Below, piece by piece: positions 2,119 through 61,757 of a stretch of 64,000 nucleotides of DNA. The first letter of the stretch is position 1. Each line of letters begins with the position of its first letter. This DNA comes from Escherichia phage vB_ESM-pEJ01, in sequence record OP114734.1. One strand, 5' to 3'. The notes below the pieces were generated by a model, which had not been told where the DNA came from, made no database searches, and saw nothing but the letters and a program-made list of their open reading frames with translations. Position numbers and translations under genes: made by a program.

Positions 2119-3942
2119 TTATGACGCCATCCATGCCTTCCTCATGTCTGAATCTTCGCTATAGAGCAAATCGAATAGCTCTTTATAGTTTTCCGGTAAC
2201 GTGATGATCTCCATGACAGGATCGTTGATCACGCGATGATAGTCTGATTCTGTGAGCGATGCTAAACCTTTGATATATCGAATGTTGTAACCTTTGATAT
2301 TATCTCGGTCGTTCTCGAAATCTTCTAGGTCATAATACCATCGAACATCATCACCTTTCTTTGGTTCAGCAATGATAATAGGTGTTTTGATAAACCGGAT
2401 TCGTCCATCTTCGAACAATTCAGGCCAACGTGCAAAGAAAGAGATCAGACTAGGTTTAATAGACCCGATCCCGTCGGTATCAGCGTCTGTCATAATCGCA
2501 ATATTTTTGTATTGCATAACTTCCAATGCATCAACACCAAATTGCAAGCCAGTGATCGCCATGATGTTAAAAATTTCGGCGTTATTAACGATCTTTGCCT
2601 CCGGTTGTTCCCACGTTGTAAGAGTTTTGCCTCGCAACGGGAAACCTCCATGTAAATCTTGATCGCGTACAGAGATCAGATAGTTGATCGCGGAATCACC
2701 TTCCGTCAAAAACAGGGTAGTTTCTGCGTCAGTTCCAATAAGGTTAGCTTTAACGTGTTTTGCCACCTTAGCCCGTTTCGCTGCCTTTGCTGCCTTAGTC
2801 GCTGCCGCTTTATCTGCTGCCTCTTTGCGTGCCAAGACTACAGCAATAATAGGCATGATAATGTTTTCTTTCTTCGCAATGACTTTAGCCAGCTTTTTAA
2901 AATCAAGATCAATATGACGCTTGATATCACCAGTCGGGTTAGTCAAGCGTTCTTTTGTCTGTGAATCAAAACGAAGGTTAGGCAATTCACGAACAATAAG
3001 AATACAGGTCAATCCAGATTTAACCGCAGCTTTAGTAACATCAACCTTATATTCTTTCTTGATTCGTTTTACAATCTCTTCACAAAGATCATCTGTCACA
3101 TAATCAACGTGTGTTCCCCCGTTTTTGGTAAACAGACCGTTAGCAAAGGATACTGATTTAAAACCTTCTCCCTCGACCGCCGGAACTAGGGCAAGTGAAA
3201 AGTTTTTATCTTCAATGACAAACGGATCATCATTGTATAGTTTAGCATAATCCTTGAACTTACTAACAATACGTTTACCATTAAACTTAAACGTGATCTT
3301 AGGAAATATTACGCTCAATGATTGCAGACGATCATGAACAATATCTAAAACAGAGTTGTCCATCATATAACCTTCGAAGTGGTCGAAGTCTGGACAAAAT
3401 GTAACCTTCGTTCCCTTCAATTTTGATGGTTTTGATGACCATGTGACATTTTCAGCACCGTTTGTGCATTGAACGGTCATTTCTGTTTCGCCGTCACAGG
3501 TCACACCAGTAAACCAATCGCTAAAGAAATTTGATAACGACGACCCAACACCGTTCATCCCTTGCGTTAATCGATTGGTATCATCAAAGTTAGACCCTGC
3601 TTTTGTTCGTGTCCATGCGGCTACAGGTTGCGGAATCTGCGTACCCTCTGGGGTAGTAACCATATGTTGAGGAATACCGCGACCATTGTCTGTTACCGTA
3701 ACAATATTGTTTTGGATATCGACGCTAATCACATTGGCAAATTCAAAGTTAGTGCGGATCGCCTCGTCTACAGAGTTGTCGATGATCTCATCAATGATTT
3801 TAACCAGTCCAGGAACGTATGAAATTTTTGTCCATTTACCGAACAGGAAACGTTGATGTTCTTCGTAAGTTGTTGATCCTATATACATTCCTGCACGCTT
3901 AAGGACATGTTCACGATCAGATAAAATGCGAAACTCACTCAT
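2119..3942 (-). CDS. 39: DNA topoisomerase II large subunit, uninterrupted (T4 gp39 plus gp60-equivalent in one 607-aa ORF)
   Basis: N-terminus MSEFRILSDREHVLKRAGMYIGS and GHKL ATPase motifs match T4 gp39; C-terminus NIAIMTDADTDGIGSI...RYIKGLASL matches T4 gp60. Confidence 0.9.
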   Translation of the reverse strand: MSEFRILSDREHVLKRAGMYIGSTTYEEHQRFLFGKWTKISYVPGLVKIIDEIIDNSVDEAIRTNFEFANVISVDIQNNIVTVTDNGRGIPQHMVTTPEGTQIPQPVAAWTRTKAGSNFDDTNRLTQGMNGVGSSLSNFFSDWFTGVTCDGETEMTVQCTNGAENVTWSSKPSKLKGTKVTFCPDFDHFEGYMMDNSVLDIVHDRLQSLSVIFPKITFKFNGKRIVSKFKDYAKLYNDDPFVIEDKNFSLALVPAVEGEGFKSVSFANGLFTKNGGTHVDYVTDDLCEEIVKRIKKEYKVDVTKAAVKSGLTCILIVRELPNLRFDSQTKERLTNPTGDIKRHIDLDFKKLAKVIAKKENIIMPIIAVVLARKEAADKAAATKAAKAAKRAKVAKHVKANLIGTDAETTLFLTEGDSAINYLISVRDQDLHGGFPLRGKTLTTWEQPEAKIVNNAEIFNIMAITGLQFGVDALEVMQYKNIAIMTDADTDGIGSIKPSLISFFARWPELFEDGRIRFIKTPIIIAEPKKGDDVRWYYDLEDFENDRDNIKGYNIRYIKGLASLTESDYHRVINDPVMEIITLPENYKELFDLLYSEDSDMRKAWMAS

Positions 3943-4041
3943 TATTAAACCTCTTCATAACATAACCATAACTTACTGCAACCGCCACAAAGACGGCTGC
4001 AACAATCATATTAAAAATTGAGTGATTGTCAAGTATATGAC

Positions 4042-4215
4042 TCATGACACGCGCACATTTTTATCATAGTACCCGCCATTAATCCCGCGCGGGGCAGTTA
4101 ATCCCTGTTTGCATTCTTTACCACATTCAGGGCATTCTGCCTTTTCACGCTCGGAAATTTTGCGGATTTTCTGAAATTGACCGTGTTCTTCACAAGAATA
4201 ATCATATAATGGCAT
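4042..4215 (-). CDS. small zinc-ribbon protein (FmdB-like CxxC...CxxC)
   Basis: MPLYDYSCEEHGQFQKIRKISEREKAECPECGK; start moved to ATG at 4215 with AAAGGGGA SD (track ORF 4042..4296). Confidence 0.5.
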   Translation of the reverse strand: MPLYDYSCEEHGQFQKIRKISEREKAECPECGKECKQGLTAPRGINGGYYDKNVRVS

Positions 4216-4216
4216 A

Positions 4217-4885
4217 TTATCCCCTTTGTTTCTTAACTGAATTTGGATCTGGATTTTCTGGTAGGTCTTCCAGACCCATAGCATAACGTTGTGCATAGAT
4301 TAGCATAAGAATATCGCGAGCGCAATCATGAATTGCATCATGTGCGATAAAACCATCTAGCGTACCCATTGGTAACGGGCATTCACACATACCACGATGC
4401 ATCAATGTACGCTCAATGGCGGTGCGAACATCTCGGATGTTCCAGAATCGCACAGGTTCAAGATTGAACGTCTCACGGGTATTGTGTGCACGGCGGATCA
4501 TATCAACCAGTAACGGAATATCAAACGCATTACCGCGTGACCACATTACGGATTTAACCGGATCTACTCCTACAGATTCACAGAATGCGTTAAAACGCGC
4601 TAAACCTTCTTTAGTTGATACTTCCGTACCATTTGTGATTAATTGCTTTCTCATGCCTTCTGAGGCGGTATTCTTCCACCATTCAACCACACCATGATCA
4701 AACACCCTTACACCTTTCTGGGAAGGAATATCAAATTTTACCAGAAAGGAATTGTCAACCAGTTCTTTAAATGTAGGTGGGTTGTGCGGATCTTCTTTAA
4801 ATCCGATTGCCGCCATATTGATCACCGCCCCATCAGGCGGATAACCTAAACTTTCAAAGTCAATCATTAAATCCACTGGAAGCAT
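4217..4885 (-). CDS. dexA: DexA-like 3'-5' exonuclease
   Basis: 222-aa ORF in the T4 dexA position between gene 39 and dda; sequence resembles remembered DexA but was not aligned. Confidence 0.65.
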   Translation of the reverse strand: MLPVDLMIDFESLGYPPDGAVINMAAIGFKEDPHNPPTFKELVDNSFLVKFDIPSQKGVRVFDHGVVEWWKNTASEGMRKQLITNGTEVSTKEGLARFNAFCESVGVDPVKSVMWSRGNAFDIPLLVDMIRRAHNTRETFNLEPVRFWNIRDVRTAIERTLMHRGMCECPLPMGTLDGFIAHDAIHDCARDILMLIYAQRYAMGLEDLPENPDPNSVKKQRG

Positions 4886-4886
4886 T

Positions 4887-5192
4887 TTAAATATCCTCCG
4901 CTATATGCCGGAACAACTCCAGATCGTTTTTATCTAGAATGAAACCGCTACAATCAATAATCCCTTTACCGTAATTATCAGTTAACAGTCGGTCCGTTGC
5001 CATGTATGCGCGTACTTTGTTGTTAAAATTAATTACATGTTGTGCATAATCACAATGAATCTTTTGACGGTTCCACGCGACAATTGATTGTAGATGTATT
5101 ACATTAGCCACATTATTAATAACAACCATATCAAAACCCTCGCTTAGTGGAATGTTCTGGCATTTTATTGATACATTCAGCTTGGTAGTCAC
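4887..5192 (-). CDS. hypothetical protein
   Basis: ORF track (GTG start at 5192); alternative ATG at 5129 with GAGGG SD would give about 80 aa. Confidence 0.45.
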   Translation of the reverse strand: MTTKLNVSIKCQNIPLSEGFDMVVINNVANVIHLQSIVAWNRQKIHCDYAQHVINFNNKVRAYMATDRLLTDNYGKGIIDCSGFILDKNDLELFRHIAEDI

Positions 5193-5196
5193 GAGA
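5126..5196 (-). repeat. direct repeat copy 1 (about 70 bp, roughly 80 percent identical to 5302-5372)
   Basis: accatatcaaaaccctcgcttagtggaatgttctggcattttattgatacattcagc... repeated with substitutions at 5302-5372. Confidence 0.6.
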
Positions 5197-5301
5197 TTTT
5201 TTTGACGAATTAAGAGCTACAGCCAAAAATCCTGTAACTGTTCGTTTGTCATTTTTGGCTTACACCGCGTATCTAAACCCTTCGTTCTTCTAGCTTCATT
5301 A

Positions 5302-5372
5302 GCCATATCAAAAACCTCTCTTAGTGAAATGCTCGATCATTTTATTGATACATGCAGCCTCACTATCGCCGG
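5302..5372 (-). repeat. direct repeat copy 2 (partial duplicate of gene start region at 5126-5196)
   Basis: gccatatcaaaaacctctcttagtgaaatgctcgatcattttattgatacatgcagc...; retains SD plus ATG but reading frame closes after 29 codons. Confidence 0.6.
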
Positions 5373-5475
5373 ACACGTTCCAGCCGTATAGACCCCATCT
5401 AAAGCACATGGTAACAGTTCCATTGTGACGGCTTACCGTCACATCATTAAATTCTGGGATACTTCGCATAATCAT
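5308..5475 (-). CDS. small hypothetical protein (55 aa), not in ORF track
   Basis: ATG at 5473-5475 preceded by GAGGAAATTATT SD; MIMRSIPEFNDVTVSRHNGTVTMCFRWGLYGWNVSGDSEAACINKMIEHFTKRGF. Confidence 0.3.
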   Translation of the reverse strand: MIMRSIPEFNDVTVSRHNGTVTMCFRWGLYGWNVSGDSEAACINKMIEHFTKRGF

Positions 5476-5485
5476 AATAATTTCC

Positions 5486-6877
5486 TCAAATATAGTCTAC
5501 TCGATACCTCGCACGGGTAACACCCACATATAATAACTGCATTGCCAATTCAAAGTCAACATTGTCTGTACACATGCAAGGAGTATACAGGAACACGCGG
5601 TCTACGCTGATCCCTTGTGACTTATGAATGGTGCAAGCTGGTAATGCTTTTACATTCAAGAACATACGCTTCATCGTCCAGAATGAATCCCAATCTGGTT
5701 TAAATTTTGGATTCTCTTTCTTCATTTCGCGATATTGTCCGGCGACCGTATTCAGATAGATAGAGAAAATGTTCTTCTGACGTTGTTCTGTCAGAATGTT
5801 GATTTCTACTAAATCTGGTTTATCTGTAGTGATTCCGACTGCATCTAAACCTACTTTCTGATTTAGGATTTCTTTGTCTTCGTCATCATCGACGCTTTCC
5901 ACTTTCAGAGTATATCCTAAAACTGGTTGCGGATCTACCCCCGTGCAACGTAATGTAAATTCACGCGGGATGACCTCTTTAACTCGGATCATCTCACCAT
6001 TGTTAAAAATAACATTGGGAATCTTCTTCCCGCGTTCATCTCGCAGATATTCGATCAATGGTTCCTGAGTAACCAGAATTTCATCTACAATCACTGGTTC
6101 ATCGGTGTTATAAACGCGCTTACGTACAATTTCATTGAGTTTTTCGACGCTCTTGTTAGTGTAGGCCAGAATACGGTTTTCTAGAAGGTCTTCCGGCGTT
6201 TTAACGGTTTCGAAATAATGCTTCATAAACTCCGGCAGAGTTGAGCTATGGAATACACCCTCGTTGCCGCACTGCTTTTCGAATACCCATTTACCATTAC
6301 GGACAGCGGTCGCCACATCAATTATTGGCGCATTAGATCGTTTAATCTCTGTAAGTTCTACATTCTGAAACCTTTCATCGGTGAAGAAAGGAGAGATCGA
6401 CGTTGCACCGCTCGGATCAACTGGTCGTAACTGGTACAGATCACCCACGGCAATAATAACAATTCGACCGTTGATACTCTTCATGAGAATATCAAATAGT
6501 TTCTTATCGACCATACTCGCTTCATCAACAATGATGATCTGAACATCATCTAGCTTAGGAGTATCTTTTTGCTCAAATACTTGAGTATCTTCATAGTTGG
6601 TCGGGTTTAGTCGCAGTAGTGCATGTAAAGTAAATGCTTGACGACCTACCGCTTTACTCAAAACTTTTTTAGCCTGGTGGGTAGGCGTTGCCAAAACCAC
6701 ACCAGTTACACCACGACGGACCATTTCCTGAACAATGAATTTCATCATTGCGGTTTTACCAGTACCCGCCGCACCACGGACAGTTGTATGCTTCTTTTGT
6801 TCAATGCGTTTCATTAGAACATCAAAAGCATGTTTTTGCCCGTCTGTTAACATATCGAAAGTTAATACTCTGCTCAT
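5486..6877 (-). CDS. dda: Dda DNA helicase (SF1)
   Basis: Walker A GAAGTGKT; FTEIKRSNAPIIDVATAVRNGKW and C-terminal LLYVGVTRARYRV match remembered T4 Dda; GAGGA SD. Confidence 0.92.
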   Translation of the reverse strand: MSRVLTFDMLTDGQKHAFDVLMKRIEQKKHTTVRGAAGTGKTAMMKFIVQEMVRRGVTGVVLATPTHQAKKVLSKAVGRQAFTLHALLRLNPTNYEDTQVFEQKDTPKLDDVQIIIVDEASMVDKKLFDILMKSINGRIVIIAVGDLYQLRPVDPSGATSISPFFTDERFQNVELTEIKRSNAPIIDVATAVRNGKWVFEKQCGNEGVFHSSTLPEFMKHYFETVKTPEDLLENRILAYTNKSVEKLNEIVRKRVYNTDEPVIVDEILVTQEPLIEYLRDERGKKIPNVIFNNGEMIRVKEVIPREFTLRCTGVDPQPVLGYTLKVESVDDDEDKEILNQKVGLDAVGITTDKPDLVEINILTEQRQKNIFSIYLNTVAGQYREMKKENPKFKPDWDSFWTMKRMFLNVKALPACTIHKSQGISVDRVFLYTPCMCTDNVDFELAMQLLYVGVTRARYRVDYI

Positions 6878-7191
6878 TATCCTAAAATCCTCACCTTGCG
6901 AACACAGATAGTATTGAGTTCTCGCCGTACCCGTTCTTTTTCATATTCAGGAATTTTATATTCGATACCATCCCGAACAATTTCAGAAGACCGGATTATG
7001 CCAAATTTTCGTTTAGGTACAACCTTGTATTTCGGTTCACCCGCCAATAGACTCTCACAATAATCTATCTGATCACACATTGACGCTAACGCAGCATCAT
7101 GTGTTTCGCAAGTTAGGACGCGACCTTTCGCGTCCACTGAGTATTGAAAGAATCCGTCTTTATCACGATAACATACAGCAAATACATGCAT
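6877..7191 (-). CDS. hypothetical protein (104 aa)
   Basis: ORF track; start overlaps stop of next gene; no recognisable motif. Confidence 0.5.
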   Translation of the reverse strand: MHVFAVCYRDKDGFFQYSVDAKGRVLTCETHDAALASMCDQIDYCESLLAGEPKYKVVPKRKFGIIRSSEIVRDGIEYKIPEYEKERVRRELNTICVRKVRILG

Positions 7192-7946: not shown

Positions 7947-7975
7947 AATTGATTCTCCTTAGTTGGCATGTGTGT

Positions 7976-8004
7976 ATTATTGTCTATCTGGTTTGTGCTG
8001 TCAA
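7976..8004 (-). promoter_or_regulatory. sigma70-type early promoter (-35 TTGACA at rc 7999-8004)
   Basis: rc of tgtcaa 7999-8004; A/T-rich -10 candidate 17-18 nt downstream; 25 nt before AGGAG SD of gene starting 7946. Confidence 0.35.
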
Positions 8005-8007
8005 CAC

Positions 8008-8511
8008 TTAAATTAAAGAAAATTTGTAAATCTCTATCAGATCGCCATTACACGCGTAAACTTCCTCGATCTCATCAAGGATCATGGTCGTCCCTGTCTT
8101 GTATATGCACTCGCGCTCATCTGCCAACATAGCATACAAAGACAGTCGAGTAGTCGGATTGTCATACTCTTTAGACACCACTCGGTCAATAGCATGTTCG
8201 TAATAATTCATGCAAGGCTTGGTAGGTTTTATTGCAATAATCTTTCCTGTTGCATAAACATCGGTTGCAAAGTCCTCTGCTGTTGATTGCAGTGGCGTAA
8301 AGCTCATAGGACGCTCTACAACGAAAGAATCGCCTACAATTAAGGTATCCAGCTTACGGCCTTCTCTTTTGCTCACACCGCGATACAAGGCTTCATGATG
8401 CACTAACCGCTCAGTCTTTTCAATCAATCCATTAAGGATCGACATATCGATATTTTCTTTAGAGTTCATCACCTCATCAATGATGTTAAGTTCTTCTGGT
8501 GTAAATTGCAT
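8008..8511 (-). CDS. putative mono-ADP-ribosyltransferase (ModA/ModB-like)
   Basis: 167 aa with candidate R-S-E triad: LYRGVS, LQSTAEDF, ADERECIY; syntenic with T4 modA/modB region; start codon uncertain. Confidence 0.4.
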   Translation of the reverse strand: MQFTPEELNIIDEVMNSKENIDMSILNGLIEKTERLVHHEALYRGVSKREGRKLDTLIVGDSFVVERPMSFTPLQSTAEDFATDVYATGKIIAIKPTKPCMNYYEHAIDRVVSKEYDNPTTRLSLYAMLADERECIYKTGTTMILDEIEEVYACNGDLIEIYKFSLI

Positions 8512-33751: not shown

Positions 33752-33780
33752 GTTGTCCTCTCGTTGTTTTCGATGTGAGC

Positions 33781-33808
33781 ATTATACATTAGCTAATCAT
33801 GTTGTCAA
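33781..33808 (-). promoter_or_regulatory. sigma70-type early promoter (-35 TTGACA rc 33803-33808; -10 TATAAT rc 33781-33786; 16-nt spacer)
   Basis: Perfect consensus hexamers on minus strand. Confidence 0.5.
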
Positions 33809-33824
33809 CACCCCAAAACGAAAA

Positions 33825-33846
33825 AGCCGACCCTTTCGGATCGGCT
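33825..33846 (-). terminator. rho-independent terminator 3' of nrdD
   Basis: rc hairpin agccgatccgaaagggtcggct followed by UUUUCGUUUU. Confidence 0.5.
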
Positions 33847-45106: not shown

Positions 45107-45135
45107 ATTTGATTATCCTTAGTTGGTATGCGTGC

Positions 45136-45163
45136 ATTATAGCATTGTGATTATCTTTGTCAA
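45136..45163 (-). promoter_or_regulatory. sigma70-type early promoter (-35 TTGACA rc 45158-45163; -10 TATAAT rc 45136-45141)
   Basis: Consensus hexamers, 16-nt spacer, followed by SD and ATG at 45106. Confidence 0.5.
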
Positions 45164-45180
45164 CACCCAAAAACAAAAAA

Positions 45181-45200
45181 GGCTACCCCGAAGGATAGCC
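45181..45200 (-). terminator. rho-independent terminator 3' of glycine-rich gene
   Basis: Hairpin ggctaccccgaaggatagcc followed on minus transcript by UUUUUUGUUUUU. Confidence 0.45.
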
Positions 45201-45207
45201 CATAAAA

Positions 45208-45984
45208 TTACACGCGAGCACCGTAGATCGTGCCTACTTTATCCCAGCGTGGAGCATTACCAGTAACAGCCTTACCAGCAGCACCGCCGTTATATTCTGT
45301 ACCGTTACCTTGAGTATTACATCTTCCTCCAGCAGCACCGACATTACCACCCGAACCGCCTGTATATGCACTAAGAGACCCCTCACCAACAGATCCTTTA
45401 CCAGGAGCGGAAATAGTACCAGCAGTTGCACCGGAACTCATATGAGAGGAAGACCCACCAGCACCGAATGGGCGACCACCGCCGCCGCCAAATACTAGTC
45501 GACCCCTGTTACCGCCGCCACCGCCGCCACCGCCGCCAGCGATAGCACCGTTATTTGTAATTCGTAGACGTGTACCGATAGCGTTATTGATTGCGTTTCC
45601 ACCAGCAGCGCCAGCAGCGTTACTACCACCATTACCCCCACGTCCGTAGACAGTCACATCGGAGTTGATGATCAGTGTTACATACTCGTTTGTTAACGAG
45701 CTAGGGAAGTCAAGACAAGGAACGCCAGTAGATTGGGAAACAATATTACCTGTGATAGTAATTACTACAGGAGTAGATCCTTGTGCTTTCATCCAGTTAA
45801 TAAGAGTGTCTTTATTGTAAGAGTTACTAGCACCAATGCTATAATGAATCTCTTTAGAGCGTCCGACCATTGCCGACATATACGCCGGACGACCTAAGCG
45901 TACAGCTTGCATTGCGGCGCTCATCCACCGTTGACCAGTCTCGGACACAGCAGATGATCCTACCCATCCAGAAGATATTGCCAT
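45208..45984 (-). CDS. glycine-rich protein (258 aa) with poly-Gly tracts
   Basis: C-terminal half about 45 percent Gly incl. GGGGGGGGG and GGGGG runs (ccg/cca triplet repeat 45511-45537); ordered N-terminal domain. Confidence 0.55.
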   Translation of the reverse strand: MAISSGWVGSSAVSETGQRWMSAAMQAVRLGRPAYMSAMVGRSKEIHYSIGASNSYNKDTLINWMKAQGSTPVVITITGNIVSQSTGVPCLDFPSSLTNEYVTLIINSDVTVYGRGGNGGSNAAGAAGGNAINNAIGTRLRITNNGAIAGGGGGGGGGNRGRLVFGGGGGRPFGAGGSSSHMSSGATAGTISAPGKGSVGEGSLSAYTGGSGGNVGAAGGRCNTQGNGTEYNGGAAGKAVTGNAPRWDKVGTIYGARV

Positions 45985-46981: not shown

Positions 46982-47316
46982 TTGTAACCCTCCTCTGAAA
47001 GCACATCCCAGATCGTTGAGTCAAGGTGCATTAAATTCCACATAATAGAGTCATAACTACCGAAGCCAGAAGTAAAAATTACATCACACTGGCGATAGGT
47101 CTTATGAAAATCGGTGGCTGTCTCTGCATCAATCGGCATATCGTCACCTGAAAGCACCAGACATTTAAGAATCATAACTCTGTTAGCCGTTGGCGCTTGC
47201 TTAGTCTTTTCAGCATATTTTTCGATGATCTGTTTTGCCTTTTCTTCTTTGATACGTCCAGACCAAATCCGGTTTCGGTATTGATTCATAATAATTTCAA
47301 TCACATCATTTTGCAT
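46978..47316 (-). CDS. hypothetical protein (112 aa)
   Basis: ORF track. Confidence 0.45.
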   Translation of the reverse strand: MQNDVIEIIMNQYRNRIWSGRIKEEKAKQIIEKYAEKTKQAPTANRVMILKCLVLSGDDMPIDAETATDFHKTYRQCDVIFTSGFGSYDSIMWNLMHLDSTIWDVLSEEGYK

Positions 47317-47515
47317 TCTTCACGGTCTCCATAATTGTTTTGTAAGCCAGCTTAAGATGATCACCGAAAAACTTTGCAGTGTTACCCTTCGGATCGCGGA
47401 GCATGGTTTCTACGATCTCATCGGCAGTAACAATTTCTCCTTTCTTTGCTGCATGTTCTACCATATACTTCAAAGTTTCTTCGGAGGCAAGTGCTGCGGC
47501 CACTGGATTAATCAT
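47306..47515 (-). CDS. hypothetical protein (69 aa)
   Basis: ORF track; AGGAGAATCAAAATG initiation region. Confidence 0.5.
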   Translation of the reverse strand: MINPVAAALASEETLKYMVEHAAKKGEIVTADEIVETMLRDPKGNTAKFFGDHLKLAYKTIMETVKNAK

Positions 47516-47542
47516 TTTGATTCTCCTTTGTTGTCGATGTGT

Positions 47543-47571
47543 GCATTATGCTATACCCTATTCCGGTTGTC
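47543..47571 (-). promoter_or_regulatory. sigma70-type early promoter (-35 TTGACA rc 47566-47571; -10 CATAAT)
   Basis: 17-nt spacer; recurring cassette. Confidence 0.45.
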
Positions 47572-47588
47572 AACACCTAAAAACGAAA

Positions 47589-47608
47589 AAGCCACCCTTT
47601 CGGATGGC
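47589..47608 (-). terminator. rho-independent terminator
   Basis: rc hairpin agccatccgaaagggtggct followed by UUUUCGUUUU. Confidence 0.5.
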
Positions 47609-47842
47609 TTTTGATTATATTTTATTCACGTCCATTTGTATAGTAGTGTTTGAATCGACCTTTGCTAAACTAGTTAAACATAGTAACCAATTCACCATCC
47701 CTTTCCAATGATAACCCTTCCTCGTCTTAGACGGGTCTTCCGATTCGGCAGTAATTGAACACGCGAAAGTATGAGGAAGCCAAATAGTTGTGTTAATGCT
47801 AGTATTCTTTTACTTCTGGTATGCATCCCACGGTGACTAACA

Positions 47843-48241
47843 TTAAGACAGTCGAGTGAGTTTATAAATTGTTTTAAAACATAGAGCTTTGATATCGTCT
47901 AAAACGCTCTGTAACGAGCTATCAACATCATTATAAATCTCACTAGCCATTTGCGTTAACTCTTGCAAATAGGCAATTTCGCTAATCTCCTTGCGGACGA
48001 CCAACGTTGGCTGATAACGACCAGTGATCCCAATATTGGTTTCAGTGAAATCATCAACCAATTCTTGCATTTCAAGATAGAACTCTTCTAGAGCCTTATG
48101 TTTTGCATAAGATCCAGGACCAGTTACCCCAAAATGCGCAGAATGCATATAAGTAACACTCATCAGACATTCACCGATAAAGCGGTCAACTTTATTATCT
48201 TTTCCCTCTTCGGACGTCTTTCGAAAATCACTGAATTTCAT
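47843..48241 (-). CDS. possible ferritin/Dps-like four-helix-bundle protein (about 132 aa)
   Basis: MSVTYMHSAHFGVTGPGSYAKHKALEEFYLEMQELVDDFTE loosely resembles Dps HWNVxG...HE motif; start at ATG 48241 (track ORF begins 48340). Confidence 0.35.
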   Translation of the reverse strand: MKFSDFRKTSEEGKDNKVDRFIGECLMSVTYMHSAHFGVTGPGSYAKHKALEEFYLEMQELVDDFTETNIGITGRYQPTLVVRKEISEIAYLQELTQMASEIYNDVDSSLQSVLDDIKALCFKTIYKLTRLS

Positions 48242-48530: not shown

Positions 48531-48598
48531 AAGTCATTCCCCCAGATTAAAAATATTCAGTTATATTTATAATCTGGGGCTTTATTTATGATTAACTC

Positions 48599-58698: not shown

Positions 58699-58740
58699 TT
58701 TGATACTCCTTAGTAGTTCGTGTTTCGTTTCGATGGGTGT

Positions 58741-58769
58741 ATTATGCTATACACCCTCTCGCGTGTCAA
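58741..58769 (-). promoter_or_regulatory. sigma70-type early promoter (-35 TTGACA rc 58764-58769; -10 CATAAT; IR gggtgtat/atacaccc)
   Basis: 17-nt spacer; recurring cassette. Confidence 0.5.
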
Positions 58770-58777
58770 CAACTTTT

Positions 58778-61654: not shown

Positions 61655-61692
61655 TTTTGATTCTCCTAAGTGTGTTTCGTTTCGATGTGTGC

Positions 61693-61721
61693 ATTATGCT
61701 ATAGTCGTTTATGGTTGTCAA
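61693..61721 (-). promoter_or_regulatory. sigma70-type early promoter (-35 TTGACA rc 61716-61721; -10 CATAAT)
   Basis: 17-nt spacer; recurring cassette. Confidence 0.5.
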
Positions 61722-61738
61722 CACATAAAAACAAAAAA

Positions 61739-61757
61739 CCCCGAAAAATTTTCGGGG
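61739..61757 (-). terminator. rho-independent terminator 3' of the 2H phosphoesterase gene
   Basis: Hairpin ccccgaaaa/ttttcgggg followed on minus transcript by UUUUUUGUUUUU. Confidence 0.5.

Follow-up and report, generated by a model that had tools for sequence, protein, structure and literature searches.

Krischviruses are T4-like phages of the RB49/JSE/Phi1 type, formerly called 'pseudo-T-even' phages. In T4, the rII deletions provide the classic example of deletion between short repeats. The described element closest to part of the locus analysed here is the promoter-early stem-loop (PeSL), which Arbiol et al. 2010 (PMC2839356) reported from RB49 and phi1 and which is also covered by Comeau et al. 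2014 (PMC4122927). The former report gives five PeSL arrangements, one of which has the stem-loop upstream of the -35 box; promoter and terminator activity are reported there for some copies, and PeSLs are proposed to mediate module shuffling and recombination and to form mini-circles (PMC2839356).

The DNA analysed in this work (the window) comprises 64,000 nucleotides of Escherichia phage vB_ESM-pEJ01 (OP114734.1). It is a Krischvirus genome (RB49-like, T4-type); across the region of interest its identity to RB49, JSE and W115 is 96-100%, and positions 47400-47950 match about 58 Krischvirus records at 96-100% identity. In RB49 the order is tk, rI, rI.-1, a gap of 328 nt, ORF084, and ORF083 onward; the minus strand is the coding direction of the genes around the gap. 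The upstream neighbour in the window (47843..48241, minus strand) is the homologue of rI.-1 (annotated RB49p085), a DUF5856 protein of the 'starvation-inducible regulator' family (PF19174, E 6.9e-21; phrog_858, E 1.3e-43), whose stop codon at 47845..47843 forms the upstream bound of the gap. The downstream neighbour (47306..47515, minus strand) was assigned by its ORF, the RB49 annotation and a PHROG match (phrog_16283) as the homologue of ORF084, and its diversity at third codon positions (pi3 0.051) compared to that at the other two (pi1 and pi2 0.004) confirmed coding on the minus strand. The original prediction had singled out the 327 nt between these genes (47516-47842) as an ORF-free segment with hairpins that might encode a small RNA, a replication or recombination site, or a degraded gene. 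A gap of this size between annotated-type CDSs was confirmed, and it exceeds every other gap in the homologous 6.5-kb stretch of RB49. Sequence comparisons indicate, with a probability of roughly 0.93, that it is made up of two parts, namely a PeSL-type cassette (47516-47621) and a pseudogene remnant (47622-47842).

The part next to ORF084 (47516..47621, minus strand) is, judged by the repeat copies in the window and by the published definition (PMC2839356), a PeSL-type cassette and hence a member of an already-described class. Promoter boxes, an adjacent stem-loop, an intergenic position and a repeated motif of about 100 bp were all found. Its elements follow each other in the order AT-rich stretch after the stop codon, stem-loop, T-run, GTGTTGACAAC, 17 nt, -10 element ATAATGCACACATCGA, Shine-Dalgarno sequence (AAGGAG, 47528..47523) and the ATG of the ORF084 homologue at 47515. 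Both signals claimed for this part held at the sequence level. The intrinsic-terminator-like hairpin (47577..47612, minus strand) has the form AAAAGCCATCC-GAAA-GGGTGGCTTTT followed by TCGTTTTT, that is, a stem of 11 pairs at 47612..47587 with a GAAA loop and then a T-run; it aligns with the other copies and carries a terminator annotation in G37-3 and G2248. The sigma-70-type early promoter (47545..47573, minus strand), which carries a promoter annotation in GEC-3S, consists of TTGACA (47573..47568), a 17-nt spacer and CATAAT (47550..47545), an 11/12 match.

Related copies of the cassette are located in the window at 33764-33846 (83% identity), 61682-61741 (85%), 45108-45181, 7949-8022 and 58730-58774, and when aligned they have one composite layout in common. 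Between three and six places per Krischvirus record match the cassette. Recurrence within the window is restricted to the first ~100 nt of the gap, the remaining ~230 nt being single-copy. Compared with the PeSLs of RB49 and phi1, the element belongs to the same phage group, is likewise intergenic within the hyperplastic early region, and has the same layout of an upstream-gene stop in an AT-rich stretch, a GC-rich stem-loop, a -35/-10 pair, a Shine-Dalgarno sequence and a start codon. There is no substantive difference; in the window copy the stem-loop precedes the -35 box, which places it in one of the published subclasses. By analogy with the role given in the literature, it would stop early transcription arriving from upstream and restart it for ORF084 and the genes downstream.

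For the remainder of the gap, the degraded gene among the options originally offered was borne out. Six sister records (Brandy, UPWr_E1, SSG23, SFHK24, G2248 and JK32) carry at this exact site, between rI.-1 and the same terminator, an intact CDS of 713-716 codons; its coordinates are 2607-4754 in Brandy (L005), 3608-5752 in G2248 (L006), 3605-5743 in JK32 (L007) and 4001-6148 in locus L008. In a 60%-identical metagenomic relative, too, the intact gene directly follows the DUF5856 (rI.-1) gene. The terminator hairpin lies directly 3' of the 715-codon gene in the intact-gene phages, with the stop codon 9-12 nt before it. The minus strand of the window is collinear with three separated parts of this gene: its 5' end, 40 internal nucleotides and its last 39 nucleotides. 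The N-terminal remnant (47695..47819, minus strand), recognized by three-frame translation and tblastn, corresponds to about codons 2-43 of 715; it translates as (P E V K)..KNTSINTTIWLPHTFACSITAESEDPSKTRKGYHWK, the G2248 counterpart being MPEVKDTSINTTIWLPHTFACSIAAESDDPTKPKKGYVWKK, and the 5' part of the remnant is 84% identical to G2248. By tblastn, 47809..47702 matches residues 5-40 of protein P0007 with 81% identity (E 6e-14), all 15 intact homologues match 47702-47809 (E down to 6e-14), and the stretch is present in 50 Krischvirus records. The internal fragment (47653..47692, minus strand; codons ~619-632, VTMFN*FSKGRF) is identical to Brandy at 38 of 40 positions (95%, E 4e-13). The C-terminal remnant (47622..47660, minus strand) comprises the last 12 codons, GRFKHYYTNGRE, plus the ancestral stop codon TAA at 47624..47622, and is 100% identical to both Brandy and G2248.

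Collinear similarity at the orthologous position is accompanied by disabling lesions and relaxed evolution, and these alignments make 47622-47842 very probably the pseudogene remnant of a gene of about 2.15 kb. A candidate paralogue of the lost gene at 6278-6886 of the window, suggested by a weak tblastn match, was rejected; the region is the Dda helicase gene and the match is spurious.

The lesions begin at the former translation start. DNA alignments, together with the start regions of 13 genomes, revealed a degenerate ribosome-binding site and a dead start codon at 47820..47835 (minus strand), the window reading GTGGGATGCATACCAGAAG where the intact gene of G2248 has GGGGGAATACATGCCAGAAG. 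The Shine-Dalgarno sequence of the lost gene is degraded from GGGGGA to GTGGGA and its ATG is changed to ATA (47822..47820), while an A-to-G change in the window lineage makes an out-of-frame ATG at 47826..47824. An extra A at 47805..47806 (minus strand; AAAAGA[A]TACTAGC, as compared to AAAAGATACTAGC in intact G2248) causes a +1 frameshift. Two deletion junctions follow, both on the minus strand. At junction 1, placed by DNA alignment at ~47687..47695 (an approximate position), about 1.7 kb was lost, and the junction lies in a short imperfect TTGTT(A/G)CTA-like repeat (N-terminal ..GTTGTTGCTAC.. versus internal ..ATTGTTACTATG..). At junction 2 (47653..47660), 222 nt (74 codons) were lost between two direct copies of the 8-nt sequence GGTCGATT; in the intact protein these copies specify GRF, once near residue ~630 and again near residue ~704. 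Deletions in the window allele total about 1.95 kb. A secondary nonsense change, GAG to TAG at 47672..47670, is absent from ECD7, G2494, MIZ4 and JEP8; only part of the isolates carry this later change.

Among the 58 matching records, six have the intact allele, two a Phi1-type allele and 50 the window-type allele. Phi1 shares the ATG-to-ATA and +1 lesions with the window. Its single deletion is a different one, of about 1.85 kb between copies of GGAAGACCCG (EDP...EDP), and leaves the final ~68 codons of the lost gene in place (tblastn E 1e-19). Neither stump is derivable from the other because each retains sequence that is absent from the other. The same 5' lesions in Phi1 suggest that point inactivation came first and was followed by two independent microhomology deletions. 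The ancestor would have carried a ~2.15-kb gene starting about 21 nt after the rI.-1 stop codon and ending at the PeSL terminator hairpin. Loss of the start codon, weakening of the ribosome-binding site and the +1 frameshift would represent the first inactivation step; in the window lineage, losses of ~1.7 kb and of 222 nt, each between short direct repeats, would then have followed, and in the Phi1 lineage the separate single deletion of ~1.85 kb. What is left in the window would be about 200 nt of non-coding debris (47622-47822). This order presupposes that window and Phi1 inherited the 5' lesions from a common ancestor; the lesions could also have been passed between alleles by recombination.

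Deletion scars between short direct repeats in T4-type phages offer a close parallel: here, too, the endpoints lie at 8-10-nt repeats (GGTCGATT, GGAAGACCCG) and most of a non-essential gene was removed. The present case differs in that decay was multi-step, is visible in natural isolates and took two deletion routes in two lineages. The locus represents a clean natural case in which a gene of a T4-type genome decayed step by step through microhomology deletions.

The same junctions bear on a further reading, in which the segment would serve as an origin of replication or as a dedicated site of recombination. Such a function would agree with a non-coding stretch in a hyperplastic region and with the adjacent PeSL class, for which recombination and mini-circles are proposed (PMC2839356). 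However, the deletions used 8-10-nt microhomologies inside the gene and not PeSL-PeSL exchange, no PeSL is present between rI.-1 and the intact gene, and the unique 230 nt occur in the window just once. The search for origin-like repeats revealed no tandem, dispersed, iteron-like or notable inverted repeats in the segment beyond the terminator, so that a replication site found no support. An origin or dedicated recombination site is extremely improbable. The recombination option applies solely to the neighbouring PeSL cassette as a member of the published class (PMC2839356), but not to the remnant, whose deletions bypassed PeSLs. Indels in hyperplastic regions thus do not all come about via PeSL-PeSL exchange.

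Sequence diversity of the stump was compared with that of the flanking genes. In 13 genomes with the window-type allele, a small sample of closely related sequences, nucleotide diversity of the stump was pi 0.033, and single-base indels were found in it; six flanking genes had diversities of 0.025-0.077 at third positions and 0.001-0.022 at first and second positions. These values suggest that the stump most likely drifts neutrally, varying roughly as much as synonymous sites in the neighbouring genes. Most probably the rI.-1 transcript simply includes it as an untranslated 3' tail that runs to the terminator at 47612-47577.

This pattern also bears on the small-RNA option, according to which the ~230 nt would encode a regulatory RNA, either free-standing or derived from the rI.-1 3' UTR, that ends at the 47612-47577 terminator. 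The segment is indeed closed by a strong intrinsic terminator, is kept in about 50 isolates and contains two weak promoter-like matches on the minus strand (TTAACA-17-CATACT, 47796..47768; TATACA-17-TATAAT, 47642..47614). Yet promoter-like matches are no more frequent than by chance (5 found versus 3.7 +/- 2.1 expected), diversity is at the level of synonymous sites with indels tolerated, the sequence is coding debris whose terminator belonged to the lost gene, and Phi1 has a different stump at the same place. Folding of the 230 nt was no better than that of shuffled sequences on either strand (z = +0.30 for the minus and +0.62 for the plus strand), so the suggested folding check gave no structure signal; with the terminator included z was -1.64, and this hairpin dominates the predicted fold of the 259-nt RNA. 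A search of the whole window against Rfam at gathering thresholds gave zero matches, and a search of the region at E values up to 10 gave chance-level matches only (E at least 0.3, far below gathering scores). A scan for tRNA and tmRNA found none. With neither a promoter of its own nor a supported structure nor conservation above the neutral level detected in the segment, a small RNA is hardly probable. Ordinary gene decay, and not a small RNA or an origin, almost certainly accounts for the nature of the remnant as far as its sequence can tell.

The persistence of about 200 nt with unchanged junctions in ~50 isolates of a compact lytic phage could hint at a residual role, such as stabilisation of the rI.-1 mRNA or spacing. 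The retention is more simply explained if a recent allele was inherited by all these isolates, with diversity at the neutral level. Co-option of the stump as a functional 3' UTR of rI.-1 is a more remote possibility.

A 7-bp stem had been reported within the segment as enclosing a loop of 45 nt. The inverted repeat CTTCCTC/GAGGAAG is present (47717-47723 and 47773-47779, no strand assigned), but its loop measures 49 nt and its occurrence is at chance level by shuffling, the expectation being 0.9 per 230 nt in shuffles; when the window is cut into 230-nt tiles, 52% of them contain at least one such stem. Its arms fall in the former codons WLPH and TRKG, and the second arm is missing from the intact genes (G2248 CCGAAAAAAGG, Brandy CGAAAAGG).

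Contrary to the original description, the segment is not literally ORF-free: plus-strand ORFs of 85 aa (47357-47614) and 110 aa (47379-47711) enter it. Both are broken by a 1-nt indel at ~47611 in eight of the 12 relatives compared. On the minus strand, a 44-aa ORF is located at 47692-47826. It lacks its ATG in six of 13 genomes (window included) and is intact in six; in the seventh genome, Ec_Makalu_001, its ATG is fused into a longer ORF of 76 aa. In the Makalu_001 homologue (L021) of ~47800-47810, the run with the frameshift is longer by two A residues, and the resulting fusion of frames gives this 76-aa ORF, which is likely to reflect ongoing drift and to be another annotation artefact. 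Comparison with close relatives indicates that none of the overlapping short ORFs is conserved among them.

Synthesis of a short protein from the stump, that is, from the 44-aa ORF or from a 27-aa ORF (MVNWLL...), was considered against this background. In its favour, GoldenSnicker annotates the 44-aa ORF as a hypothetical protein, the ORF is intact in six of 13 genomes with Makalu_001 having the ATG in its 76-aa fusion, and the Phi1 stump is annotated as ORFan 84.1 (PMC2839356). The ATG of the 44-aa ORF, however, stems from the lineage-specific A-to-G change, is out of frame with the ancestral protein and is absent in six of 13 genomes; the ORF has no PHROG match, the change from GGGGGA to GTGGGA has degraded the ancestral Shine-Dalgarno sequence, and pi as a whole is at the neutral level, the stretch being too short for a test of codon periodicity. 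That a short protein is still made is very improbable. ORFan 84.1 is listed as one of seven phi1-unique genes (PMC2839356). It maps inside the Phi1 stump (L004, NC_009821; 1307-1435 of the locus, 47400-47528 of the record), so that it probably represents a piece of the decayed gene and not a gene of its own. Very likely artefacts, among the short ORFs called in several GenBank records, are phi1 ORFan 84.1, the 44-aa ORF and the small ORFs of the plus strand, and in annotation the gap is best labelled as a pseudogene remnant plus PeSL.

The protein encoded by the intact gene belongs to a family of 15 clusters (58-97% identity) among 5.8 billion proteins, the sole name given being 'hypothetical protein'. 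In an AlphaFold (AF2) model (mean pLDDT 75, with low confidence at residues 610-635 and 704-715), the chain of about 715 residues is predicted to fold into about six Ig-like beta-sandwich domains arranged in tandem and to end in a small domain of the alpha/beta type. Foldseek matched the model to multi-Ig chains and to phage Ig-domain proteins, including a Hoc. At the sequence level, Pfam Ig_3 gave a weak match (22.9 bits against a cut-off of 30), residues 513-698 matched PHROG 1149 ('Hoc-like head decoration', E 7e-10), and a PDB sequence search returned one marginal Ig-domain match. Similarity to RB49 Hoc falls in the capsid-binding C-terminal region but is too weak to establish homology (BLASTP E 0.017; hhalign E 0.036, probability 1.4%).

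Like Hoc, the lost protein has tandem Ig-like domains followed by a small C-terminal domain, and its gene is dispensable and variably present. In contrast, it has about six Ig-like domains in 715 residues as opposed to three Ig-like domains plus the C-terminal domain in the 404 residues of RB49 Hoc, its gene lies in the early region after rI.-1 whereas hoc is located beside gene 24 and inh, and a canonical hoc is already present in RB49-type phages. About 10% of the sequenced Krischvirus isolates have the gene intact, whereas the others carry it in a dead form. Loss of a Hoc-like gene would fit the usual dispensability of accessory surface proteins. We tentatively suggest that the lost gene may have encoded a decoration or adhesion protein of the virion that was Hoc-like but much longer, a second one beside the canonical Hoc, and that is polymorphic among Krischviruses, with the window as a datable record of its multi-step discard; this assignment is somewhat doubtful. 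If it is true, phi1 'ORFan 84.1' is not a gene. A small, fast-evolving multi-Ig family kept by only some Krischviruses could be of importance for adherence to the host or to mucus, and for isolates used in phage therapy, which would concern the sister phages and not the window.

Some further observations concern the surroundings of the locus. Divergence of the lost protein (58-97% identity) is much more rapid than that of the remaining genome, and the intact gene, found in a minority of Krischviruses only, always lies directly after rI.-1. A scan of IMG/VR with rI.-1 returned nine loci, eight of which are from other genera and have no relative of the lost gene beside rI.-1. In L008 (6246-7214), the most divergent intact-gene relative, the next gene downstream encodes a DNA methylase (PF00145) and is followed by a Dmd-family gene, not by ORF084. 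The methylase and Dmd genes in place of ORF084 suggest that the rI.-1 side is the fixed border of a variable module region.

No copy of the T4 late promoter TATAAATA was found in the gap; the closest one is at 48564, upstream of rI. The sequence TTTATAAAC at 47866-47858 (minus strand), in the 3' end of rI.-1, agrees with the T4 late-promoter core TATAAATA at six of eight positions. The lost gene formerly started about 35 nt further downstream, and the intact-gene phages have this sequence conserved.

A gene for a glycine-rich, gp38-type tail-fibre adhesin (45208-45984, minus strand; PHROG 2056, E 1e-98) stands alone in the early hyperplastic region of the window, and the PeSL-like copy at 45108-45181 is located just downstream of its stop codon. 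G2248 does not have the gp38-type adhesin gene at this spot, which indicates that the adhesin locus is itself variable.
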